24,448 nucleotides of DNA from Syntrophomonadaceae bacterium. Lineage in GTDB: Bacteria > Bacillota > Syntrophomonadia > Syntrophomonadales > Syntrophothermaceae. The stretch's first letter is position 1. Every line of letters begins with the position of its first letter. The translations under genes and the position numbers were made by a program. The notes under the pieces were generated by a model that searched no databases, had not been told where the DNA came from, and saw only the letters and a program-made list of their open reading frames with translations. The stretch is from positions 1 to 24,448 of the forward strand of contig JARYMO010000001.1 of assembly GCA_029907055.1 (NCBI GenBank), given 5' to 3'. Of the stretch, positions 1,304 to 13,033 are shown in pieces.

Positions 1304-2386
1304 TCAGCTTCCCTGCAATATGCGCTGGTAAAGAGTCAGGTGGGCCTGCGCAGTATGTGATATGTCGAAGTTCACAACCCGTTTGAATCCTCTCTCTCTC
1401 AGCTCTTCGCGCATGGCTGAGTTCGACAGAACACGTTTCAGTTCCTGGGCAAGCCGCTCATCGTCTCCCGCGGGAAAGAGTATACCAGCCTCTCCGACGG
1501 TCTCTCTCAGCCCAGGAACCGCAGAGGCCACCACTGGGAGCCCGCTTGCCATGGCTTCCACCACCGACAAGGAGAACCCTTCCCACCGGGAGGACTGGAC
1601 ATAGACGTCGCACGCTTTCATTATGCGAGCAACGTCGCTGCGACGGCCAAGAAAGTGAACCCTGTCTTTCAGGCCCATGGAAACCACCTGTGATTCCACC
1701 AGCGGTCGGGTGGAACCGTCACCAACCAAGACCAAATGCGCATCCTCCAACCTTCTCATGGCCCGCAGCAAAGTCGCATGATCCTTTTCTTCCTCGAATC
1801 TGGCCACTGAAAGCACTATGGGGCCCCCACCGCTACCCACGAGAGCCTCCCGAGTCAGCGCAGTCGCTGTGCCAAATTGTGATACCGGGATCCCGTTGGG
1901 GATTACGTGCACTATTCCCTCAGTCTGTGGCACCCAGGCCTGCAGCGAACGTTGCACGGCATCGCTCACGCATACAATTGCTGCGTACTGCATGTACATC
2001 CATCTATCCACAGGCCGAAGCAATGCTTTTCTCCTGTGATTGTGGGTGCTGTGCTCCGTGGTGATAAGAAGAGTCCTGCGCCGAGCTGTCCTCAGGGCAA
2101 TAGGCACCCACAGTTGCGCCGGAAACAAGTGTACATGGATCACGTCGTAGTCGTCCCACCCAAGCCGCCGTCGGAGTCCGTCAACCTGCAGTGGACTGCG
2201 CAAGCGGCCCTCAGCGAAAGTTATGGAGAATATTCCTTTCGCCCGGTACTCCAGCACGCTGTCCGTCCGCTGAAGGGCGTGGATGGAAACCTCACAGCCG
2301 GACTCTCTCAGAGCCGAGACCAGATTGACGAGGAGCGTTTCTGCGCCTCCCACCTGTAGGCTATTGATAATGTGAAGTACCCTCAC
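1304..2386 (-). CDS. Glycosyltransferase family 4, about 360 aa
   Basis: RVLHIINSLQVGGAE N-terminus, HVHLF, TEHS, IPNGI, VARFEEEKDH, VGDG, SRWEGFSLSVVEAMASGLPVVAS (EX7E). Start moved from the track's 2434 to GTG 2386, which follows a GAGGAG SD. Confidence 0.93.
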   Translation of the reverse strand: MRVLHIINSLQVGGAETLLVNLVSALRESGCEVSIHALQRTDSVLEYRAKGIFSITFAEGRLRSPLQVDGLRRRLGWDDYDVIHVHLFPAQLWVPIALRTARRRTLLITTEHSTHNHRRKALLRPVDRWMYMQYAAIVCVSDAVQRSLQAWVPQTEGIVHVIPNGIPVSQFGTATALTREALVGSGGGPIVLSVARFEEEKDHATLLRAMRRLEDAHLVLVGDGSTRPLVESQVVSMGLKDRVHFLGRRSDVARIMKACDVYVQSSRWEGFSLSVVEAMASGLPVVASAVPGLRETVGEAGILFPAGDDERLAQELKRVLSNSAMREELRERGFKRVVNFDISHTAQAHLTLYQRILQGS

Positions 2387-2434
2387 GCAGCCACTCCTCT
2401 TGAGAACAACCTGATGTATCGATTGCACAAGCAT

Positions 2435-3400
2435 TTATGGCACGCGAATCTGAACAGGAATCCCTGACTTTGCCACCGAGAGGAATTCTCCAGACGTGCG
2501 CTGTGTCGACTTTCGAACGCCAGTTATACTGACCGCTGTCGTCACACGACACGAGACTATAGCGGGTCCGTCGTTTCATCCAGCGCCACCGCCTCCAAAG
2601 AGGTGCTGCGAGGATTTCCGGTCTGCACGAATGCCATAGGAGTCCGCTCTGCGGCTGACGTGCGGAATTTATTGGCGGCAGGCGCAAGCCACGATCTTCG
2701 CCATGTTTCCACGCAAGCATCTCCTGTCCTCATTGATTGCATGAAAATCCCCCTTCTCTTGGTCGGGGCTGGGCCAAGGCCGCCATCACATTCCTCACGA
2801 ACGTCGGCAGATTTAGTACCGCACGAATTACCATCCAGTAATGATGCTATGAGCGGGTAAAATCTTCTAAGAGCGCAGCAGTTGCGGCCACTGCTTCCAC
2901 AAGGAGTGCCCGGCCTAGAAGAACACATAGTCGTAGACAATAATGGAGATATGAACAACATGATCAATCGTGATGACAGGACATCACCTTGAATCGCCAC
3001 CATCTTCGCTGGCCCCGCCAGTCAGAGCTATCATCTTGCACCGTCAGCACTCCCGACCAGGGGGAATTCTAGCCCCTGCTACACGGAACTACACTACGCG
3101 TTCACGCTCGAATTTCAACGGCTCAAGCAGACCAAGACCACTACCCTCTGATGCATATGAGCGATTCTCACTTCAACAAGTCCTGTCATGTCCAATTCCA
3201 ATGACAAGGCCGACAACAGCGCGTCTTACCCATGCACACCCCTACTCACTTCAAACCATTGCGAGGAGTTGCCTTAGGCTGGCGTTGAAAAGCGTCTACG
3301 TATGAACTTGATGAACTTGCCGCAACAACGCCGCGGCCTTCGTGAGTCGTCAGGCGAGCGTGCTGCCCGCAAATATCAGCCTCCTTCTCTCCTGCCGATA
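2435..3400 (-). pseudogene. Decayed coding remnants between GT2 and GT4 (identity unresolved)
   Basis: About 1 kb with no long coherent ORF inside an otherwise dense operon. An intact AAGGAGG SD precedes TTG 3372, but the frame stops after 32 aa. Protein-like segments are broken by stops (e.g. LLGRALLVEAVAATAALLEDFTRS*HHYWMVIRAVLNLPTFVRNVMAAL). A second SD-ATG at 2742 overlaps the upstream frame's stop at 2730-2732. Confidence 0.4.
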
Positions 3401-3437
3401 GGTGCAAACTATATACAAAATAGACAATGTTGCAATG

Positions 3438-4403
3438 TTAACTGACATTCCTCCGTTTCGTCTTGATTTCATAAGCGTTGCCAATCCTTCTTGGCTTCAA
3501 TCGCAAACCTCCTAACCTTGTTCGGGACCGCATTACCACCTGTCGGATTACGACTATCCCCGCAAACACATGAGAACACACCAGAGCAACAATCCTTGGC
3601 AGAACTTGTCGCCAGTTCTTAAACCGAACGGCGACTACAAGCATGTCAAAACGGTACTGGGCTAAATGATAGGCAACAAGAATCGGTACACCCAAGTAGC
3701 CTATCTTGTCAGCATGCTTTGAGAAAATGCGATGCAACGCAAACTTCCTGTTCTTGGAGTAGGTTTTCGACAGCGACCCGGGCCGAACCATGTACTCGGC
3801 GAGAGGCTCTGGGACATATACCCACTTCGCTCCTCCGCGTAGCAGCCGAAGCCACACATCGTAGTCTTCTGCTTCCCCTTTCAGCACTTCATCAAATCCT
3901 TGGATACGGCGGAAGAGTTCGGTGCGGCCGACAGTCATGGCAAAAGGCACCGTCTGCCAAAGCAAGTGCAGATACTGGCGACTTCCTGGGGCTGCAAAGC
4001 TCTGATGAAGCGCTGGGCGTTCTCTGAGTCGGCGCCCCCCCTCGTCGATATAGAAGTAGTTGGATATTGCCAGATCGGCTCCACTCTCAAGTCCGTCGAT
4101 CATCACTTCGAGTCTACGGGAATCCCACTTGTCGTCAGCATCCAGAAACGCAACATATTTGCCCCTGGCAAGCTGAAGACCCGCGTTGCGCGCCGCTGCA
4201 ACCCCCCTGTTGTCTTGCGAGAATACTCTGACTGAGTCTCCAAACGTTTTAAGAATGGCTGCAGTGTCGTCAGTAGAACCGTCGTCGACAACAATCACTT
4301 CGAGGTTAGCGTAAGTCTGACTGAGGGCACTCTCTATCGCTGACCGAAGCCATCGCCCGCAATTGTATGTCGGGATTATCACGCTGACCATAGGCCTTGA
4401 CAT
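3438..4403 (-). CDS. Glycosyltransferase family 2 (GT-A fold), about 321 aa
   Basis: VSVIIPTYN, VVDDGSTDD, NRGVAAARNAG, FLDADD (DXD), GFDE...EDYDVWLR. Hydrophobic C-terminal tail. Start taken as ATG 4403 (the track extends to 4427). Confidence 0.94.
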   Translation of the reverse strand: MSRPMVSVIIPTYNCGRWLRSAIESALSQTYANLEVIVVDDGSTDDTAAILKTFGDSVRVFSQDNRGVAAARNAGLQLARGKYVAFLDADDKWDSRRLEVMIDGLESGADLAISNYFYIDEGGRRLRERPALHQSFAAPGSRQYLHLLWQTVPFAMTVGRTELFRRIQGFDEVLKGEAEDYDVWLRLLRGGAKWVYVPEPLAEYMVRPGSLSKTYSKNRKFALHRIFSKHADKIGYLGVPILVAYHLAQYRFDMLVVAVRFKNWRQVLPRIVALVCSHVFAGIVVIRQVVMRSRTRLGGLRLKPRRIGNAYEIKTKRRNVS

Positions 4404-4615
4404 GCTGGAATCACCGCTTCCCACCAATGAGTAGTCGCGGAGGCTGAAATGGTCCGTCCTCCAACCGCTATCTGCCGGACTCCCAATGGTTCTCCTTCCT
4501 CAACCATAATCCGCTTCATCCATCATGATGCTCCGCTGACCTGGTGGCGCCCCTGCGCCCTTATCGCGAATACCCTCTTGTCCATTTATTTCCTTCTTGC
4601 AGCTGCCGAACAACA

Positions 4616-5950
4616 TCAAGAACTCTTACCCTTCAACAACAGGACGCGCAAGGTCCTCAACAGCACGACGACATCAAGCACTGCAGACTGCCGTTGAATA
4701 TAGAGCAGATCGTAACGCAGCTTGTCTTCCGGAGCGGTGCTGTACCTGCCCTCCACCTGCGCCAGACCCGTGAGCCCACAAGGCACCCTGTGCCGGTAAG
4801 CAAATTCCGGTAAGGTCCGGCAGTATTCGTTGACGAAGTGCGGGCGTTCGGGACGGGGCCCCACGAGACTCATATCTCCTACCAGCACATTCCATAGCTG
4901 GGGCAGCTCGTCTATCCGGCTCCTCCGCAGGAACCGCCCAACCCTGGTCACCCTGGGATCCCCTTCGCTCGCGAGTACGGGACCGGTATCCTTTTCCGCG
5001 TCCGCCCGCATGGTGCGAAACTTGTGTACTCTGAATATTCGGCCGTCCTTCCCTAGCCGCTCCTGCGAGTAGAACACCGGCCCCGGGGAGTCTACCCTGA
5101 CCAGCAGCGACACGAGTGCGAGCACGGGGCAAAGCAGGACAAGGCCCGCCGCCGCAACCACGATGTCGAACACCCGCTTCCCCCAGCTCAGATACCCCGG
5201 GCCCGAAATACCCTGCAGCAGTAGCAAGGGTACGTCGCCGGCATTCACCAGCCCTGCCCGTTGCAGCATGATGTCCTGAACGCGAGGCTGAATGAGGACC
5301 GACTTGCGGGTCTGGACGCAGTATTCTACGATCGCCTCTCGAGTCCCACTATCAAGTCCGGCACCGACGATGACCGCCGCCACCTCGCGAAGAGACGAAC
5401 TGGTTTCCGCCAGGCGGTCCCACAGGGCGTGCGAATCTCCCTCACCGGTCAAGGACACGCTATCAGCCACGAAGAACACTCGTCCCAGCTGGTCGGCGAC
5501 GGCGTGGCGCAATCGCTCGATCTCGCCCTCTGCTCCGACAATGACGGCCTTCTTCGGCGCTCCCGCCAGCAACGCCTTTCGCCACACCAAGGTACGCCAG
5601 ACACCGAGGAGAAGCAACTGAAAGACGGATGCCATCGCGAACACCGTCCGCGGCACGGCAAACTGTCGCAGGAGGAATGAAAGCCCCATGTTCACCGCCA
5701 GCGAGAGGCCGACGATGCAGACCAGCGAGGCCAGCACCTCGTCGAAATCCGAATATTCCGAGTAGAAGCGGTATACCCAGCTCAGCACGACGAATGTAGC
5801 GATAAACCAGGGTACCATGGTCAGGAAATCCTCGAGGTTCTCGGTCGGGATTCGCAGGCCGAATTTCAGCAGAAAGGCAATGAGAAAGCTCCCCAGGAAC
5901 AACAGAACATCAATGGCTCCAACCAGTACTTTTCTTCCTGAACCGACCAC
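4616..5950 (-). CDS. Priming polyprenyl-phosphate sugar-1-phosphate transferase (WbaP/WcaJ/WsaP-like)
   Basis: Four N-terminal hydrophobic segments, a KAVIVGA Rossmann-like middle region and a fifth TM segment (KRVFDIVVAAAGLVLL). The C-terminal Bac_transf domain has KFRTM, IDELPQLWNVLVGDMSLVGPRPERP, GLTGLAQV and DLLYI. GGGAGG SD before the GTG. Confidence 0.96.
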   Translation of the reverse strand: MVGSGRKVLVGAIDVLLFLGSFLIAFLLKFGLRIPTENLEDFLTMVPWFIATFVVLSWVYRFYSEYSDFDEVLASLVCIVGLSLAVNMGLSFLLRQFAVPRTVFAMASVFQLLLLGVWRTLVWRKALLAGAPKKAVIVGAEGEIERLRHAVADQLGRVFFVADSVSLTGEGDSHALWDRLAETSSSLREVAAVIVGAGLDSGTREAIVEYCVQTRKSVLIQPRVQDIMLQRAGLVNAGDVPLLLLQGISGPGYLSWGKRVFDIVVAAAGLVLLCPVLALVSLLVRVDSPGPVFYSQERLGKDGRIFRVHKFRTMRADAEKDTGPVLASEGDPRVTRVGRFLRRSRIDELPQLWNVLVGDMSLVGPRPERPHFVNEYCRTLPEFAYRHRVPCGLTGLAQVEGRYSTAPEDKLRYDLLYIQRQSAVLDVVVLLRTLRVLLLKGKSS

Positions 5951-6026
5951 GGATGTCCCTCCCGGTTCTCAATGGACGTTCTGCCAATGCAGCCCATGCG
6001 TGCCGTAGCAGTGAGTCAACGCAAGA

Positions 6027-6052
6027 CGCGGGGGCCGATTGTTCGCCCCGCG
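6027..6052 (-). terminator. Terminator-like hairpin inside the leader of the sugar transferase operon
   Basis: CGCGGGG (6027-6033) / CCCCGCG (6046-6052) stem, followed on the minus strand by TCTTGCGTT. The U-tract is weak. Confidence 0.35.
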
Positions 6053-6174
6053 CAATTCAGTATCGAGGCCACCCTCCGAGTGCTCGCCGGAAACGGAGGG
6101 GGCGGGCACTCCTGCAGGCCCCCTGCGTGGCCCTCTCGCCAGCACCCCAGCTTGCCGCCCTGTTCCCGCCCTAT

Positions 6175-6183
6175 ATGGTACCA
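6175..6183 (-). promoter_or_regulatory. Possible extended -10 (TGgTACCAT) for the glycosyltransferase operon
   Basis: TG-n-TACCAT within the palindrome TATGGTACCATA. The -35 is poor (TTGGCA at 19-nt spacing). Confidence 0.3.
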
Positions 6184-6371
6184 TAATGGCCCCAGGAGGT
6201 GCCAAGGCGTTTGCCTCTCGGCGCGGCGGCGTCAACCGGGCCATTCATCCCGACTGCTTCAGCCGGTCCCAGAACTGAGTTCAATCCCGCAACGGGCATC
6301 CAAATGCTCCAACCCGCACACTTCGAAATCGTTGCCCGGCACGTTTCAGCGCAGTGTGTTGCCTGAACACA

Positions 6372-6400
6372 AGAAGGGCCCGCGTACAGCGGGCCCTTCT
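6372..6400 (-). terminator. Rho-independent terminator after the lipoprotein gene
   Basis: Perfect 12-bp stem AGAAGGGCCCGC / GCGGGCCCTTCT with a 5-nt loop, followed by TGTGTT on the minus strand, 80 nt after the stop at 6480. Confidence 0.8.
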
Positions 6401-6479
6401 CCAATCGGACGCTGTGGTTTCGCTGGTTGCCTTCGCCGTCCCTTCACCAACGCGAGCAGCACCTCCCAGCGGGTCAACG

Positions 6480-7862
6480 TCACGAATCCACGGAACACTT
6501 ACCACTGCTGGGATCAAATGCGAACTGGGCGGCAAAGGCACGGCAGACATCGGCTGCAGGCACCAGCACCCTGCCAGACACCAGTTCGGCAGCAGCCTCC
6601 ATGGGCACTTCGACGCCGTTGACTCTCATCGTCCGACTGCCGATGCTGATCTGCAGCGCCTTGGCAGGAGTGAGCATGGAGACTGTGCGGGTAGCGGCGT
6701 CCCAGTGAACATCGCCCGCACTCACCCCCAGCATCTGGGCAACATCGCTGACGGCAACGAACACCTTCCCCTCCCTCAGAAATGGGGCAAAGGCCATCGG
6801 CCGCTCTTCCCCATCCACTTTCATGGTGGTACCCCCAATGGTGAACGACGAGACGATTTGGGTTCCCTTCGGCGGCGCCGTATTGCAGTAGGCGACCGCA
6901 GCTTCCGCGGCCGACACGAACGGATTGCCCATGGTGATGGCATCGACCGCAGATCCACCCACCGCCAGCATCACCGGCCCGGCCGGCACCGTGCGGTCCA
7001 GGGTCAGCAAGATGTCAGACACTGCGATGGTGCTGGGCTGGGTGCTCCCGCCCCGCAGCAGGATGGTGAGAATATTGCCGCTGACCATGGCCGAAGGGGA
7101 AGCGAGTTCGAGGTCGCCTGCGGTCACGTTCACCGTGGGACGCGCAGCGAAAGTGACCCCCGTCGGCGCAACCACCACCAGCCGCCCTTGTGTGCCCCGT
7201 ACCACTGCCTGCAACGCCTCCGGACCCGCCTCGCGGACGACCAGGTCAGCGGCGGGCTGGGCCTGTCGCCCGGCTCCGACCGTGCGCGTCCCCCCGACCT
7301 CCAGCGAGAGCGCCCTGGCAACGCGGGCCACCGGCACCTGGGCAGATGCTCCGGCCGTTCCACCCACCGTGAGGATGACCTCGCCTTCGCCAGTACCCAG
7401 CGGCACCGTCACGGCCCCACGTTCGAATACCACCCTGCTTGCCCGGTTACCAGCCTTCAAGACCGTGTAGCTGACCAGCCGCCCCTGGGAGTCTTCTGGT
7501 ATGGCTCCGGACCCCAGCACCACGTCGCCTTCAATCACCGTCGGCACTGGCGCGCGGTTCCAGGCCAGGCCGGGCGGCAGTTCCAGGGTAACGGTCCTGC
7601 CTTCCTCCAGGCTTCCCGCCCCCAGCTCCCTCACCTCCACCGCGGCTACCCCTGCATCGAGGCGACCAGTGTAGACCTGCAAGGGAGATGCCGCTCTCAC
7701 CTCGAGCCCGGTTTCCCGCGGCAGACTTGGTTGTGGCGCCGGCCGCGGTGCACATCCGGACATCAGCAGGGCCATCAGGCCTGCCAGCAGGAACGCTGGC
7801 AGACTCATGCGTACTCGTCTGCGGCATTTCTCCACCTGGTTGGTTCGCAAGGGATTGCTCAT
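6480..7862 (-). CDS. Lipoprotein with two S-layer-type modules and a C-terminal copper-amine-oxidase-N (stalk) domain
   Basis: Lipobox LMSG-C after a basic/hydrophobic leader. GSLEEGRTVTLELP and QPAADLVVREA...PTVNVTAGDLEL...LTLDRTVPAG align by eye with the 10436-12589 protein. Stalk domain FTIGGTTMKVDGEERPMAFAPFLREGKVFV...SGRVLVP. GGAGGGG SD. Confidence 0.85.
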   Translation of the reverse strand: MSNPLRTNQVEKCRRRVRMSLPAFLLAGLMALLMSGCAPRPAPQPSLPRETGLEVRAASPLQVYTGRLDAGVAAVEVRELGAGSLEEGRTVTLELPPGLAWNRAPVPTVIEGDVVLGSGAIPEDSQGRLVSYTVLKAGNRASRVVFERGAVTVPLGTGEGEVILTVGGTAGASAQVPVARVARALSLEVGGTRTVGAGRQAQPAADLVVREAGPEALQAVVRGTQGRLVVVAPTGVTFAARPTVNVTAGDLELASPSAMVSGNILTILLRGGSTQPSTIAVSDILLTLDRTVPAGPVMLAVGGSAVDAITMGNPFVSAAEAAVAYCNTAPPKGTQIVSSFTIGGTTMKVDGEERPMAFAPFLREGKVFVAVSDVAQMLGVSAGDVHWDAATRTVSMLTPAKALQISIGSRTMRVNGVEVPMEAAAELVSGRVLVPAADVCRAFAAQFAFDPSSGKCSVDS

Positions 7863-7912
7863 GATATCCCCTCCATTCTGTTCCCGTGCTTGACGGCGGC
7901 CTTCATCGCGCT

Positions 7913-7918
7913 GTTATA
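7913..7918 (-). promoter_or_regulatory. Possible -10 element (TATAAC) for the lipoprotein gene
   Basis: TATAAC about 50 nt upstream of ATG 7862 and just downstream of a strong terminator, so a promoter is expected here. The -35 is weak. Confidence 0.3.
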
Positions 7919-7965
7919 CTACCATGATAGCATGCCGGAAGAGATGTCCCGACCGTTGGTGAGAA

Positions 7966-8008
7966 AAAAGCATGACGGGCGCCCCATCTGGGCGCCCGTC
8001 ATGCTTTT
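7966..8008 (-). terminator. Strong (potentially bidirectional) Rho-independent terminator
   Basis: Perfect 19-bp inverted repeat AAAAGCATGACGGGCGCCC / GGGCGCCCGTCATGCTTTT with a 5-nt loop and T-runs on both strands, 35 nt after the stop at 8044. Confidence 0.9.
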
Positions 8009-8043
8009 CTCGTGATTGTTGCGCTGCTCCTCTGCCACGCCCC

Positions 8044-9210
8044 TCAATGTCCTGACGCCGTGGACGGCGATGCCAGGTATGCCCAGGGTTTGGCAAAGGC
8101 CATCTTCATGTAGGCGTGCTGGGCAGCGATCTCATCGGCTCCTGCCACCGCCGCAGCCAATGCCTTTTCGGCTGCCGTTACCTCCGCCAAGGTGCCCACC
8201 CCCACCTCGTAGCGCACGCGGGCCACCCGCAGGTTCTCCTGGCACACGCTGATGCCAGCCATGGCAGCGGAGTAGCCCTGCTCCAGCGCCTGCACCGCGT
8301 AGTAGAGGTTGCGGGTCAGCAAGGCAAACGTTTCCTCGGCGCTCATGGCATCAAGGCCTGCCTGCTCGACCTCTATCTTGCGCACCTGGTACGGAGAATA
8401 CTGGCCGCTGTACAGCGACATGTCCTGCAGAATCTCCCGCATCTTCACCGTTTGCCGGGCCAGCCACAGGCTAGGGGCGCCCTCCAGGGCGCGCCGCACC
8501 TCGTAGTCAAGGCTGTCGATGCGCAAGGGCTGGAACGACAGCTGGTCGACCAGTATCGGCCTGTCCTCCGGCCACAGCCCCACTGCCTGGTTGAACGCCG
8601 CGTAGGCCTTCTCCACCTCGGCACGCGCGCTGGCCAGGGATGTCTCGCCCGATGTCAGCTGGGCCTCGGCGGCGGCCAGTGCACCTCCTGTTCCCATGCC
8701 GACCTGGAACATCGCCCGGGAGTCCTGCAGCCGCCGCCTGGCGTCCGCCAGAGCCGCCTCAGCGGCCTCCTCCCTCGCCAGCGCCACCTGGACCTCGCGG
8801 TACTTCTTGGCGGTGTCCAGCACCACCGTATCCCGGGCCGCCTGCTCGGACCGTTTGCTCATCTCCCAGGTGAGATCGGCGGCTAGGAACTGGGCCCAGG
8901 GGACCTCGACGATGGAGGAGCCGGCTGGCTCCGAGGGTACCCAGTCGAGCCCGCTCGCGCTGTGGTCACGGAGCTCGCCCGTGCGTTCAACCTCGCGGGC
9001 AGCCTTGAGCACCGCCTCGCTGTGGCGCATTGCCATGGCGGTAGCCTGTTCCAGGGTGAGCTGCGGTCGGGCGGGTTCCCGGGCCTGCACCGGTGTCATC
9101 GCGGCAGTCGCGGCGAGGGCCAGGCACAGCAGCAGGAAGACCGCCCGGGCAGCCCCGCTGAGCCCACGAAATCCAGACCACCACTCACCGCCGGCACGTC
9201 TCATGGTCAT
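8044..9210 (-). CDS. Secreted TolC/outer-membrane-efflux-family-like helical protein
   Basis: Signal peptide ending VQA, LTLEQATAMAMRHS start motif, and two helical repeats with the TolC-type turns MFQVGMGTGGAL and RYEVGVGTLAEV. Confidence 0.8.
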   Translation of the reverse strand: MTMRRAGGEWWSGFRGLSGAARAVFLLLCLALAATAAMTPVQAREPARPQLTLEQATAMAMRHSEAVLKAAREVERTGELRDHSASGLDWVPSEPAGSSIVEVPWAQFLAADLTWEMSKRSEQAARDTVVLDTAKKYREVQVALAREEAAEAALADARRRLQDSRAMFQVGMGTGGALAAAEAQLTSGETSLASARAEVEKAYAAFNQAVGLWPEDRPILVDQLSFQPLRIDSLDYEVRRALEGAPSLWLARQTVKMREILQDMSLYSGQYSPYQVRKIEVEQAGLDAMSAEETFALLTRNLYYAVQALEQGYSAAMAGISVCQENLRVARVRYEVGVGTLAEVTAAEKALAAAVAGADEIAAQHAYMKMAFAKPWAYLASPSTASGH

Positions 9211-9384: not shown

Positions 9385-10281
9385 TCAGTAGGCGATTTCC
9401 ACCTTGGCCCACTGGGCGTCGGTAGCCTCCTCGACCCTCAGGATGGTGTCCCGCTCCACGATGCGGCACCCGGCCACCATCACCTCGCTCCCAACGAAGC
9501 ACTTGCAGTCCAACATCTCCCCGTTGGCCACGATGACCGGCCGCTTGGGGCTGAACGGCCATTTCTGGATATGCCGGACCTTGACCCTCGCCCCGTCGAA
9601 GCCCGTGCGTCCGGGAAGGTACGAGGTCACCACGTCGGCATCGGTGACCAAGCGGAGGACAGAGGCGCTGGTCGCGTACAGCCTGACCTGTCCGGCCTGG
9701 GTCAGTGCTCCGGGCTCCAGCTCGACTTCCACGCTCACCTTGGGGTTGATGGCCGCCTGGATCGTGAGGGCGCGCGAAGGATCATAGAACCCCTCGGCGA
9801 CCGGCTCGCCCTCCGGCGGCTGCTGGACGAGGGTGGAGATGCGGATCGTCCTCGTCACGCTGTCCCAGCTGACATTGGTCTCCATGGACTCAGCGATAAA
9901 GCGCAGGGGCACCATGGTGCGTCCGTTGATGATCATGGGGGGGACATCCAGCATCATCTTCTGCGTGCCTCTCAGCGCCTCCCGGTCTCCGATCTTCAGC
10001 ACGATGGTCATTCCACCCTTGGTCCCGATGACGGTCTTGGTCGCCTGCTGCCACTCCAGGTGCACCCCCAGCGCCTCGAAGATGCTGCGCAGGGGCACCA
10101 GCGTACGCCCCTGCACCACCTGCGGCGGGGTGTCAAAGCGCAGCGGCTCGCCGTTGAGCCGAACGGTGATGGGCCTGGTCTCAGCCATTACCGGCGGCGC
10201 CAACAGACCTGCTACCACCAGGCCCACCAGCAACGCGGCCAGCGCAGCCCGCCGCCAGCCTGCTCGTATGGCTCCGTGCAT
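9385..10281 (-). CDS. Secreted protein with an N-terminal copper-amine-oxidase-N (stalk) domain and an unknown C-terminal domain, about 298 aa
   Basis: Signal peptide ending VMA. ITVRLNGEPLRFDTPPQVVQGRTLVPLRSIFEALG...PMIINGRTMVPLRFIAE...VSWD. Start reassigned to ATG 10281 after a GGAGGTGG SD, because the track's extension overlaps a terminator. Confidence 0.88.
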   Translation of the reverse strand: MHGAIRAGWRRAALAALLVGLVVAGLLAPPVMAETRPITVRLNGEPLRFDTPPQVVQGRTLVPLRSIFEALGVHLEWQQATKTVIGTKGGMTIVLKIGDREALRGTQKMMLDVPPMIINGRTMVPLRFIAESMETNVSWDSVTRTIRISTLVQQPPEGEPVAEGFYDPSRALTIQAAINPKVSVEVELEPGALTQAGQVRLYATSASVLRLVTDADVVTSYLPGRTGFDGARVKVRHIQKWPFSPKRPVIVANGEMLDCKCFVGSEVMVAGCRIVERDTILRVEEATDAQWAKVEIAY

Positions 10282-10330
10282 CCCCGACCACCTCCAGTCA
10301 TCGCGTGTTCGACAGTCTGTAGTACAAAAC

Positions 10331-10369
10331 GGCGGGGAGCCCGCATCCTCAAGGACCGGGCTCCCCGCC
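10331..10369 (-). terminator. Rho-independent terminator of the S-layer gene
   Basis: Perfect 13-bp stem GGCGGGGAGCCCG / CGGGCTCCCCGCC, followed by GTTTTGT on the minus strand. Confidence 0.85.
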
Positions 10370-10435
10370 AGCTCCGTCATCATCCGCTCCTGCGTTTCGA
10401 CTGCATGCCTTTCATTTCAACCGTCTTCAGTCTGG

Positions 10436-12589
10436 CTAGAACGTCACCGTGACGGTCTGGGTCGCCGCATCCCACGCGATGTCGGCTCCGAACGCCTGGG
10501 CCACGAAGCGGATGGGCAGCATGGTCCGGCCGCCGGTGATCTCGGGGGCAGCGTCCATCATGATAGCGGCGCCGTTCAGCAGCATGGTCTTGCTGCCAAT
10601 GGTCATCTGCACCACGCGGTCACCCTTGATGATGGTGACGGTCTTGGACACCGCGTCCCAGATGATGTTGTTGTCGCTGACGCCCACGGCATTGGCCACG
10701 AAGCGGACCGGCAGGAAGGTGCGGCCGTCCTTGATGTAGGGAGCCACGTCCATGGTCACCGCTTCGCCGTTGAGGGTGTAGGTGGTGCTGCCGATGGTGA
10801 ACACCGCGGTGCCGGTGGTCTCACCGGGAGCCGGGGTCACCACGACCGCCGCCACGAACTTGGCCACGTACTCGGCATCCTCGAATACCAGATTGTCTGC
10901 CCCGTTTTCCATCAGGTCTTCATTCACAGCCGTCCCACCCGCGCTGACCACCAGGGTGCCCACCGGCACGGTGCGGTCAACGGTGAAGGTGATGTTGCTG
11001 ATCTTGATGGTAGCGGCTTCAGAGCTCTCCGCCTTGATGGGGATGACCAGCACCCGGTTGCTAGTGGTGCGGGTGATGGAGCCAAGCTCCACGTCGCCCG
11101 CGGTGACGGTGACGGTCGGGACCTTCGACCATGCTACTCCGGACGGTGCGGTCAGTTCCAGTCTGCCACCGTCCATCAGGGCCTCGGCCTTGGCCTCGAC
11201 GATGGTGATGTCCCCAGCCGGCTGGTCCTTGATGCCGATCTTGACCTCGTTCTCGCTGCCGGTCACCGTGATGGGAGCGAGCACCTTGGCCACCACGACG
11301 TCACCAGACACCCCGGCGCTGCCACTCACCGTGACCACCAGGTCGCCGGGGGCCATGTCGACCGCCAGGTCAACCTCGATGTCCTTGATGGTGATCTTGC
11401 CAGCATCATTTCCGGTGTTGTCAATCTTGAACTTCAGCTGATCGCGGTCACTGTTGAGCGTAACGCCCTCGACATCCACACCGCCTTCGGTATCGAAGGT
11501 GTAGCTGTCTTCCACGAACTTGGCCTTGTCGGGAAGGGTGAGTATCACGGTGCGCCCGTCAACCAGGCTGTTTCCGGCGGCCTCGTCGATCACGATGTCG
11601 CCGACTTCCTCGGCCAGACGGCCAGCCAGCACCTCGGTGGCGTTCTTGGCCTCCACGGTCACGCCGTAGTCAACGTACTTGGCAACCACCAGGCTGGAGG
11701 GGGAGAAGGTGGATTTGCCGCGCACGGTGACCTTGACGTCGCCGAGCTTGGCCTCGGTGGAGTCAACGTCGATAGTGGCGCGGAGCCGCATCAGTTTCTT
11801 CCCCGTGGTGCTTGTTGCACCATCCGTGTCGTGACACCTGACGTACAGGTCGCGACCGTCCACTTCGTAGTACACCTTGCCCGTAAGATCCTCGCCGTAG
11901 GTGATATCATAGACCTTGCCGCCCGCGAAGGACACCCACGTAAATCCCTTGGGCAACGTGAAGCGCAGGCTCTCCGGGTCTTCTTTCAGCGCACCGGCGG
12001 TGTTTTCCTTCATGTTGATGATAATGGCACCAGCGTCGCTGCCAGACTCGGTAATCTCCTTCACGTCCGGGACGGACAGTGCCACTTCGCCGTCGCTCAG
12101 CTTGGCGATGGTGAGTTCACCACCCACGAACTGGCCGGACAGCGCGGTGATGGTGGCCTTCACCTCACCGGAGGCACTGCTCGGGATATCCATGTTCAGC
12201 TTCAGGTAGACGTCCACATCGGTATTCTTAGCGTAAACGGTGAGCTTGAGTTCATAGTCGGAACCAGAGACCTCTTCGTAGAAGAGATCAGTGCCGACCT
12301 GCAGGGAGTTGTCGTTCACCCCGTACACACCGCTGACGACACAGCTTGCAATATTGAGGTCATAGTCGTCCGACGGAAGTGAGATGATGGCGCTGCTAGT
12401 GGTCGTCAGGGGATCAAAACGGATGTGGATCTGCCCTGACATCTGTCCCGTATCGCCAGCGGTCAGCGTCGGAGTCGTCAGCATCTGGTAGGTGGTAGCC
12501 GCCTGTGCCGCCGGGATGCCTACGAACAGCGTCGCCAGCATCGCCAGCACCAGCAGCAGGGCGAGCTTGCTGTTTCTCGCTTTGCGCAA
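10436..12589 (-). CDS. Probable S-layer / major surface protein, about 717 aa: four tandem beta-rich modules plus a C-terminal stalk domain
   Basis: TTG 12589 after an AGAGGAGGG SD. Signal peptide RKARNSKLALLLVLAMLATLFVGIPAAQA. Thr/Val/Asp/Gly-rich and acidic. Strong codon bias, long leader and strong terminator, as expected for a very highly expressed gene. C-terminal FTIGSTTYTLNG...MDVAPYIKDGRTFLPVRFVA...GRTMLPIRFVAQAFG. S-layer identity is an inference. Confidence 0.8.
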   Translation of the reverse strand: MRKARNSKLALLLVLAMLATLFVGIPAAQAATTYQMLTTPTLTAGDTGQMSGQIHIRFDPLTTTSSAIISLPSDDYDLNIASCVVSGVYGVNDNSLQVGTDLFYEEVSGSDYELKLTVYAKNTDVDVYLKLNMDIPSSASGEVKATITALSGQFVGGELTIAKLSDGEVALSVPDVKEITESGSDAGAIIINMKENTAGALKEDPESLRFTLPKGFTWVSFAGGKVYDITYGEDLTGKVYYEVDGRDLYVRCHDTDGATSTTGKKLMRLRATIDVDSTEAKLGDVKVTVRGKSTFSPSSLVVAKYVDYGVTVEAKNATEVLAGRLAEEVGDIVIDEAAGNSLVDGRTVILTLPDKAKFVEDSYTFDTEGGVDVEGVTLNSDRDQLKFKIDNTGNDAGKITIKDIEVDLAVDMAPGDLVVTVSGSAGVSGDVVVAKVLAPITVTGSENEVKIGIKDQPAGDITIVEAKAEALMDGGRLELTAPSGVAWSKVPTVTVTAGDVELGSITRTTSNRVLVIPIKAESSEAATIKISNITFTVDRTVPVGTLVVSAGGTAVNEDLMENGADNLVFEDAEYVAKFVAAVVVTPAPGETTGTAVFTIGSTTYTLNGEAVTMDVAPYIKDGRTFLPVRFVANAVGVSDNNIIWDAVSKTVTIIKGDRVVQMTIGSKTMLLNGAAIMMDAAPEITGGRTMLPIRFVAQAFGADIAWDAATQTVTVTF

Positions 12590-12826
12590 GTGTTTTCCCT
12601 CCTCTAGTATGTGATGTTGATTGAGGTAATCGGGGCCTCCTGCCCCAGCTGGAGGTGGTCGCCGGGACTGCCCGGCATCGCGGCCTATACCTCTCATCCC
12701 TCCCAACCCTGGCCGGCCGGGAACCGACCGGTGTCTCCCGCCATCCGCGTGCGGTGGGTTCCCTCCCGCCCGCGGCGCGGGGTCGTCGCTGGAGGCGGCG
12801 GCCGCCCTGGCGGCCTTCGCTGTTCC

Positions 12827-12832
12827 AGTATA
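12827..12832 (-). promoter_or_regulatory. Sigma-A-like -10 (TATACT) upstream of the S-layer gene
   Basis: Same AGGGTATACTGG context as the clear promoter at 9258-9286. No good -35. Confidence 0.35.
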
Positions 12833-12837
12833 CCCTA

Positions 12838-12866
12838 TTGGACACGCTGGCAGCCAGTGATGTTCC
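12838..12866 (-). promoter_or_regulatory. ECF-sigma-type promoter pointing at the S-layer gene
   Basis: GGAAC (12866-12862)-N16-GTGTCCAA (12845-12838), with the same boxes and spacing as the copy in front of the ECF gene. Confidence 0.55.
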
Positions 12867-13004
12867 CGGGCCCGATTCAAAATCTCACCCGATCCGCAAT
12901 GGCCGGGCCGGTGCGCGGCGAGCTGCACGACCATGTATGGAGTCATATATTATATAATAGATGCTGCGGTACGCGTTCCATGGCACATGACCTTTTTCGA
13001 GAAC

Positions 13005-13033
13005 GGAACAAAACCCCGAAGGCCGGTGTCTAA
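13005..13033 (+). promoter_or_regulatory. ECF-sigma-type autoregulatory promoter
   Basis: GGAAC (13005-13009)-N16-GTGTCTAA (13026-13033), about 40 nt before ATG 13074. AAC in the -35 and GTC in the -10 are general ECF promoter features, and ECF genes are commonly autoregulated. Confidence 0.6.

Follow-up and report, generated by a model that had tools for sequence, protein, structure and literature searches.

A gene at positions 8044 to 9210 of the 24,448-nt stretch of DNA analysed here (the window; contig JARYMO010000001.1 of a Syntrophomonadaceae bacterium) encodes a 388-amino-acid (aa) homologue of the channel protein TolC that lacks the membrane beta-barrel and that we call the short TolC. 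We read this protein as, most plausibly, an ordinary efflux duct with a split operon. With a probability of about 0.7, it is the wall-spanning exit duct of a pump made of a membrane fusion protein (MFP) and a resistance-nodulation-division (RND) transporter encoded in trans, perhaps also of an MFP-MacB pump, and is held in the envelope by Cu_amine_oxidN1-type proteins. The gene is no orphan, and its product does not represent a new kind of protein; it is the gene's pairing with a coat-like gene, and the wall-anchor fusions in its family, that are worth following. The features of the gene and its product are listed below.

8044-9210, minus strand: gene for the barrel-less short TolC (OEP) homologue, 388 aa (P0001), recognised from the open reading frame (ORF), Pfam OEP in two stretches, the TolC fold (TMq of 0.68 to 0.72) and a profile match
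9082-9210, minus strand: Sec-type signal peptide, aa 1-43, with predicted cleavage after VQA, read from the sequence
8896-8961, minus strand: vestige of beta-hairpin 1, aa 84-105, SASGLDWVPSEPAGSSIVEVPW, from the mafft alignment and the model loop 87-98
8683-8712, minus strand: membrane-proximal tip turn 1, MFQVGMGTGG, aa 167-176 (motif core MFQVGMG, 167-173), aligning with TolC RFNVGLV
8389-8424, minus strand: vestige of beta-hairpin 2, aa 263-274, DMSLYSGQYSPY, from the mafft and hhalign alignments and the model loop 269-273
8185-8214, minus strand: membrane-proximal tip turn 2, RYEVGVGTLA, aa 333-342 (motif core RYEVGVG, 333-339), aligning with TolC GYSVGTR
8077-8091, minus strand: C-terminal KPWAY motif, aa 374-378, from family conservation

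Pfam OEP (PF02321) matched the protein in two stretches (E value of 1e-14; 55 bits against a cut-off of 22), so that it carries the two tandem OEP repeats typical of TolC and the outer membrane factors (PF02321; TCDB 1.B.17). It scored below the curated TolC-level thresholds, with 44 bits against 225 for TIGR01844 and 27 against 210 for TIGR01845 (NodT), and a single-sequence phmmer search of the PDB gave only a match with an E value of 0.42; a profile built from a 20-sequence alignment (A1) matched TolC chains at 1.8e-11. The single-chain AlphaFold2 (AF2) model, for which A1 served as input, reached a predicted local distance difference test score (pLDDT) of 86 and a predicted template modelling score (pTM) of 0.77. 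Foldseek returned 44 significant PDB matches to this model, all of them TolC-family channels, that is, outer membrane factors (ST50, TolC, OprM, OprN, CusC, CmeC, and MtrE; TMq of up to 0.72; E values of about 1e-10). The model, these matches and the conservation of G171 and G337 described below establish the alpha-helical tunnel fold and the conserved tip turns of outer membrane factors. With E. coli TolC, OprM, CusC, and ST50 (PF02321, TIGR01844), the short TolC shares the tandem repeats, the long H3 and H7 helices, the equatorial segment, and the VG(L/T) tip turns, but it lacks about 62 residues of strands and loops, and its host lacks an outer membrane and the beta-barrel assembly machinery (BAM) or translocation and assembly module (TAM). 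At its N terminus, a basic n-region and a hydrophobic core, AVFLLLCLALAATAAM, precede VQA and RE, between which cleavage is predicted; the AF2 model has a helix at 19-36, and homologues share this signal arrangement, with a conserved KEPATP start next.

The loss of the barrel was measured against E. coli K-12 TolC by aligning both hairpins with mafft and hairpin 2 alone also with hhalign. L-DWVPS-EPAGS-SIVEV-PW stands in place of LLPQLGLGADYTYSNGYRDANGINSNATSASLQLTQSIFDMSKW of TolC at hairpin 1 (about 25 residues fewer by mafft), and QDMSLYSG-QYSPYQ in place of TLDLTASTGISDTS...VGLSFSLPIYQGG at hairpin 2 (about 37 residues fewer), a total shortfall equal to four membrane strands plus their external loops. 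The AF2 model is helical throughout, without strands at the hairpin sites: loop 87-98 joins helices 65-86 and 99-169, and loop 269-273 joins helices 246-268 and 274-336. Some likeness between TolC and the short TolC persists there (DYTYS/DWVPS, LDLTASTG/QDMSLYSG, and LPIYQ/SPYQ, respectively), and the alignment suggests that just the bases of the strands remain, with about 5 residues per strand, which makes these stubs too short for crossing a bilayer. Neither the alignment nor the model contains the four membrane-spanning beta-strands per protomer that build a 12-stranded barrel. An earlier, sequence-only reading of this gene had recognised both helical repeats and the RYxxG-type turns, had located two short segments of about 20 and 12 aa at the hairpin sites, and had judged the barrel to be apparently absent; on all of these points it was right, the two segments falling exactly at 8896-8961 and 8389-8424.

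The short TolC belongs to a large and uniform family. An exhaustive HMMER search recovered 803 cluster representatives at E values of at most 1e-3, 129 of them at or below 1e-30, and nearly all are 353 to 400 aa long. Named genomes that carry the family include Desulfofundulus, Desulfoscipio, Pelotomaculum, Desulforudis, Desulfovirgula, Sporotomaculum, Syntrophomonas, Syntrophothermus, and Moorella/Neomoorella, and it also occurs in a Thermacetogeniaceae metagenome-assembled genome (MAG). In an alignment of 151 members, on which all conservation figures are based, the hairpin sites are almost without insertions (gap fractions of 0.06 and 0.22), which indicates that the whole family is barrel-less. 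The best-kept positions are the glycines of the membrane-proximal, pump-facing tips, G171 (98%) and G337 (100%). Equatorial residues N207, G211, R217, P218, L220, P246, and W249 are kept in 83 to 98% of the family, K374, P375, and W376 in 83 to 89%, and P92, in the vestige of hairpin 1, in 88%; Y137, E310, and the equatorial H365 are further well-conserved positions. By analogy with TolC topology, the KPWAY motif and the conserved residues 207-249 would belong to the equatorial belt. Conservation in the distal stubs is among the lowest in the protein (mean top-residue frequencies of 0.34 and 0.27). At 27 of the 29 columns conserved in at least 80% of members, the window protein has the commonest residue of the family, and it therefore looks functional. 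Many homologues extend beyond the invariant KPWAY into a low-complexity tail rich in Ser, Gly, and Ala (A1 columns 420-445), which could serve as a linker or as glycosylation sites; the tail of the window protein is short (ASPSTASGH).

The host genome is a MAG of 1.83 Mb in 362 contigs, 93.5% complete. A search for Omp85/BamA, for which known diderms gave matches as a control, found none in this genome or in the 30 relatives searched, which share its family and order and include single-contig genomes (0/31), and LpxC gave no match in the host genome. Because of these two absences and the presence of Spo0A, we regard the host as monoderm; it is a monoderm spore-former of Syntrophomonadales-like lineage with 65% GC, and the monoderm envelope that the sequence-only reading had supposed is thereby confirmed. 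By the same two markers, the usual setting of the TolC family, an outer membrane with BAM/TAM, was not found here.

Transporter genes were sought with hidden Markov models of our own, built from seed sequences, and with Pfam. The sole RND gene of the host genome lies on another contig (C278:635-3784, 1049 aa). Ahead of it stands an MFP gene that is cut off by the contig start, leaving the C-terminal 211 aa. In four genomes of the same family or order (G001, G002, G003, and G021), a coat-like gene, a short TolC gene, an MFP gene, and an RND gene follow one another in this order, the MFP and RND genes directly behind the short TolC gene, and the short TolCs of these pump-linked loci are those most like that of the window (43 to 53% identity). 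The C278 RND protein is 75% identical to that of G003 and 71% identical to that of G001, and the MFP fragment is 65 to 67% identical to the TolC-linked MFPs of G001 and G003. The C278 pair is thus orthologous to the TolC-linked pairs of the relatives, indicating that the cognate pump has been retained and that the operon is split in the host genome. A further MFP-MacB pair is present on contig C4. The sequence-only reading had described the gene as having no pump partner and as repurposed, and neither description is supported: a probable partner pump is encoded elsewhere in the genome, its closest orthologues sit in pump operons, and the tip glycines are its best-conserved positions. The adaptor adjoining one family member (P0011) gave alpha-hairpin Pfam matches.

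Relatives also carry a second short-TolC paralogue (26 to 28% identity), which heads a TolC-MFP-ABC-MacB operon that includes an ATP-binding cassette (ABC) gene and resembles ABC pumps of the MacAB-TolC type; this paralogue was not found in the host genome. One such operon is complete at locus L065 (G001:C1:93000-109000; 3169-8102, minus strand), where genes for a short TolC, a 489-aa MFP, an ABC ATPase, and a MacB-type permease adjoin a PAS/HAMP histidine kinase gene; it is a MacAB-TolC-like system in a monoderm. A weak second OEP match in the host genome, on C270, was considered as a second TolC and rejected, since it is an MFP with a long alpha-hairpin. This 450-aa MFP (G000:C270:2590-3939; L003) owes its weak OEP match to the hairpin, as does the 489-aa MFP of G001, and both matches fit the common origin of adaptor and TolC helices that has been proposed and is mentioned in PMC8809574.

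The short TolC would accordingly be an outer-membrane-factor homologue of tripartite pumps, fitted to an envelope without an outer membrane. Exported by Sec, it would presumably form a trimer enclosing a long alpha-helical tunnel of the TolC type, and the two glycine turns at its membrane-proximal end, of which turn 1 is the presumed adaptor docking site, would dock on the alpha-hairpins of the MFP. The adaptor in turn would sit on the RND transporter encoded on C278, and possibly also on the MacB-type pump encoded on C4. The distal end, with short aromatic and proline-rich stubs, no 12-stranded barrel, and hence no means of spanning a bilayer, would open in, or at, the peptidoglycan and the protein coat, and the duct would probably be held via its equatorial belt by the Cu_amine_oxidN1-type wall-associated proteins encoded around it. 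The conduit through the wall or surface layer that the sequence-only reading envisaged fits these data, and with it that reading restates a hypothesis published earlier (PMC8809574, PMC11170357).

How such a duct could be fixed in place is suggested by domain fusions within the family. Among the top 150 representatives, seven join Cu_amine_oxidN1 domains to a short TolC, at the N terminus in P0089, P0116, P0131, P0151, and P0155 and at the C terminus in P0052 and P0085. Another, P0105, has three SLH domains ahead of the short TolC, and P0107 has a SpaA-like domain; the ESM Atlas holds a 57-member cluster with a Cu_amine_oxidN1 plus OEP architecture. SLH domains are established anchors to wall polymers. 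In the TolC structure, the N and C termini are both found on the outer face of the tunnel, within the equatorial belt, and the AF2 topology of the short TolC agrees with this, so that an anchor fused at either end would reach the same place. The barrel-less ducts would thus be fixed in the wall or coat via the equatorial belt, with an anchor supplied in cis, as in the fusions, or in trans, by neighbouring Cu_amine_oxidN1 genes, as in the window.

The genes that flank the short TolC gene and its predicted transcription signals are the following.

10436-12589, minus strand: upstream partner gene for a 717-aa secreted protein with immunoglobulin (Ig)-like beta-sandwiches and two C-terminal Cu_amine_oxidN1 domains, from Pfam, the ribosome-binding site (RBS) and orthologues
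9385-10383, minus strand: gene for a 332-aa Cu_amine_oxidN1 protein, flanked by the partner and TolC genes, from Pfam
6480-7862, minus strand: gene for a 460-aa protein with lipobox LMSGC, paralogous to the C-terminal half of the partner (33% identity), directly 3' of the TolC gene
9286-9258, minus strand: sigma-70-like promoter match TTGACC-17-TATACT, 10 of 12 positions, about 48 nt upstream of the ATG
7988-7974, minus strand: terminator-like hairpin and T-run, 56 nt past the stop codon, a weak match with 0.9 sites expected by chance

The true start of the partner gene is a TTG at 12589, 7 nt after the RBS GGAGGG, giving a 717-aa product with a signal peptide; the 836-aa ORF call is too long (at 12587-12946), its homologues aligning from residue 120. 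A model of the 717-aa protein is all-beta, a chain of Ig-like beta-sandwiches followed by the two Cu_amine_oxidN1 domains, and Foldseek gave just generic multi-Ig matches to it, with low TM scores, and identified no S-layer protein among them. The upstream proteins at other short-TolC loci are its full-length orthologues (30 to 43% identity over about 715 aa), and orthologues of the 332-aa protein (47 to 58% identity) occupy the same position in three of these loci (L005, L029, and L031). The identity of the 460-aa protein to the partner extends over residues 426-834 of the 836-aa ORF. We dropped a general lipid-tether model for the duct, the lipobox of this paralogue being absent at other loci. 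Elsewhere, comparable genes downstream of the short TolC encode ordinary signal peptides, and the lipid anchor looks specific to this genome.

We surveyed the neighbourhoods of 53 distinct full-length short-TolC genes, 41 loci having at least 3 kb of upstream sequence and 41 at least 6 kb of downstream sequence; the loci were found via peptide patterns from A1 and are hence biased to this subfamily, and related loci are not independent. At 34 of 41 loci, a Cu_amine_oxidN1 protein of at least 650 aa is encoded within 3.5 kb upstream and on the same strand. On the downstream side, an MFP gene occurs in 17 of 41 loci, an RND gene in 14, and a directly adjoining Cu_amine_oxidN1 gene in 9 of 41. 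The host genome has 21 Cu_amine_oxidN1 ORFs, a large paralogous family of surface proteins, and by our own estimate adjacency to one of them by chance would have a probability of a few per cent. The arrangement seen in the window recurs at locus L008 (TolC identity of 41%), where a divergent pair of extracytoplasmic function (ECF) sigma and anti-sigma genes, a large protein gene, a mid-size Cu_amine_oxidN1 gene, the short TolC gene, and a Cu_amine_oxidN1 gene for about 430 to 460 aa follow in order, with about 2.4 kb from the divergent pair to the orthologous surface-protein gene downstream of it. The sequence-only reading had placed the TolC gene among S-layer genes. Secreted Cu_amine_oxidN1 proteins and an SLH-bearing S8 protease are indeed encoded around it, and an S-layer role for these neighbours is plausible; no lattice protein was identified among these neighbours, and a preprint presenting an S-layer atlas draws no link to Cu_amine_oxidN1 proteins.

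The sigma-70-like site ahead of the TolC gene fits the promoter of its own that had been predicted for it; shuffles of the 66% GC stretch gave 0.2 such sites by chance. The interval from the ECF sigma gene to the gene for the large surface protein contains two GGAAC-N16-GTGTC motifs placed back to back (12841-12866, minus strand, and 13005-13030, plus strand), and the sole other match in the window is inside the TolC gene on the opposite strand; no ECF-type promoter motif was found upstream of the TolC gene. The locus was in none of the RNA runs searched, and one soil DNA run contained 7% of the sampled words.

Several observations weigh against the short TolC being the duct of a pump encoded in trans. 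The 24-kb contig carries no MFP or RND gene, as the sequence-only reading had correctly noted for the adjacent genes, and C278 breaks off within the MFP gene, which hides the original neighbours of the pump. Across 31 related genomes, a short TolC and an RND occur together in 23, the TolC only in 3, the RND only in 3, and neither in 2, a co-occurrence that is only loose, the genomes being kin and not independent. Finally, linkage to the coat-like gene (34/41) exceeds linkage to an MFP gene (17/41), so that a coat-centred role keeps some plausibility. In this main alternative, the protein would be a structural element or a pore of the protein coat, lying in or supporting the neighbouring multi-Ig/Cu_amine_oxidN1 layer, with pump coupling secondary or lost in this genome. 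We consider such a role unlikely, even though the gene is flanked by the coat-like gene, the smaller Cu_amine_oxidN1 gene, and the lipoprotein paralogue, has its own promoter-like site apart from any pump gene, and has relatives fused to Cu_amine_oxidN1 or SLH domains: conservation peaks at the tip glycines that would dock an adaptor and not at the distal stubs, the closest orthologues sit in pump operons, and the orthologous pump has been kept.

The remaining explanations are each contradicted by the tests run. That the protein is the duct of a type-1-like secretion route, exporting the surface proteins encoded beside it, was suggested as a role for such proteins by the authors of the D. reducens surfaceome study (PMC4137172), and the neighbouring genes do encode secreted proteins that look abundant; these neighbours carry N-terminal signal peptides or a lipobox and look like Sec substrates, however, and the linked transporters are of the RND and MacB types and not HlyB-type ABC exporters, which makes the route very improbable. 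Decay of a non-functional relic of an ancestral diderm envelope after the loss of the outer membrane would agree with the missing barrel and with the absence of Omp85 from the host lineage, and such genes have been discussed as diderm-to-monoderm remnants (PMC11170357). It is hardly credible for an intact ORF that matches 151 divergent members so closely at their conserved columns, in a family of hundreds of 50%-identity clusters of uniform length whose synteny is kept across Syntrophomonas, Pelotomaculum, Desulfofundulus, and Moorella genomes. Moreover, the monoderm D. reducens expresses a homologous member of the family at its surface, its surface extracts having yielded a PF02321 protein together with HlyD-family proteins (PMC4137172). 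We give almost no credence to a cryptic diderm in which another protein supplies the barrel. Some Syntrophomonadaceae stain Gram-negative; against a hidden outer membrane stand the uniformly negative Omp85 search, in single-contig genomes too and with positive diderm controls, and the lack of an LpxC match in the host genome.

Beyond the pump duct itself, we tentatively put forward, as a possibility that we rather doubt, that the short TolC and the multi-Ig/Cu_amine_oxidN1 protein of about 720 to 780 aa form a co-inherited two-part module, in which a coat with a barrel-less duct plugged into it replaces the outer-membrane portion of tripartite pumps and Cu_amine_oxidN1 or SLH domains act as the wall anchor, in cis or in trans. 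If so, the module would be older than the divergence of the Syntrophomonas, Desulfotomaculum-type, and Moorella lineages and could record how ducts survived the loss of the outer membrane in Firmicutes. Tripartite pumps are known from textbooks as machines of Gram-negative bacteria. PMC8809574 raises the question of how cells that have neither an outer membrane nor BAM assemble a TolC-type duct and hold it in position, for which the product of the upstream multi-Ig/Cu_amine_oxidN1 gene and the Cu_amine_oxidN1 and SLH domains fused to some members are candidate holding partners; it is directly testable, as cultured hosts exist (Syntrophomonas, Pelotomaculum, Desulfofundulus, and Moorella).

TolC-like proteins of BamA-less monoderm Firmicutes, mostly encoded in operons with an adaptor and a pump, have been described before, with a truncated barrel region and a proposed S-layer location (PMC8809574; Stubenrauch et al. 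2022, PLoS Biol). The short TolC resembles them in being a secreted OEP protein, by its predicted signal peptide, whose barrel is truncated and whose host is a single-membrane Firmicute that lacks BamA and has candidate surface-layer genes, and relatives of the short TolC are encoded beside an adaptor and an inner-membrane pump; it differs in that its gene lies apart from the pump genes, the orthologous MFP-RND pair being on C278, and in coming from the Syntrophomonas/Pelotomaculum/Desulfofundulus/Moorella group, genera that the main text of that paper does not name. In C. difficile 630, CD630_24060-24080 form an MFP-RND-TolC operon (PMC11170357); according to a thesis cited there, the TolC orthologue fractionates with S-layer and cell-wall proteins, and the TolC-linked pump is reported to export toxic metabolites. 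Compared with both studies, the family described here shows in addition a steady link to the multi-Ig/Cu_amine_oxidN1 gene and fusions to wall anchors. PMC8809574 makes no mention of SLH or amine-oxidase domains, fusions, Desulfotomaculum, or Moorella, and no description of the coat-gene linkage or the anchor fusions was found in the collection of literature that we searched; both appear to go beyond PMC8809574 and PMC11170357.

The joining of a wall-binding module to a channel part, as in P0105 with its three SLH domains, recalls the SLH-anchored proteins of the OmpM/SlpA type. OmpM and SlpA are, however, beta-barrels in a real outer membrane, unlike the window protein, which has neither a barrel nor an outer membrane nor a wall-binding domain in cis.

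Two further observations concern the surroundings of these genes. Short-TolC loci in related MAGs (L004, L005, L007, and L008) are flanked by dense clusters of toxin-antitoxin genes (PIN/VapC, MazE, BrnT, and HepT). In the window, GC content falls to 52 to 56% at positions 2001-5000, across glycosyltransferase genes, compared with about 65% elsewhere, and these genes may have been horizontally acquired.

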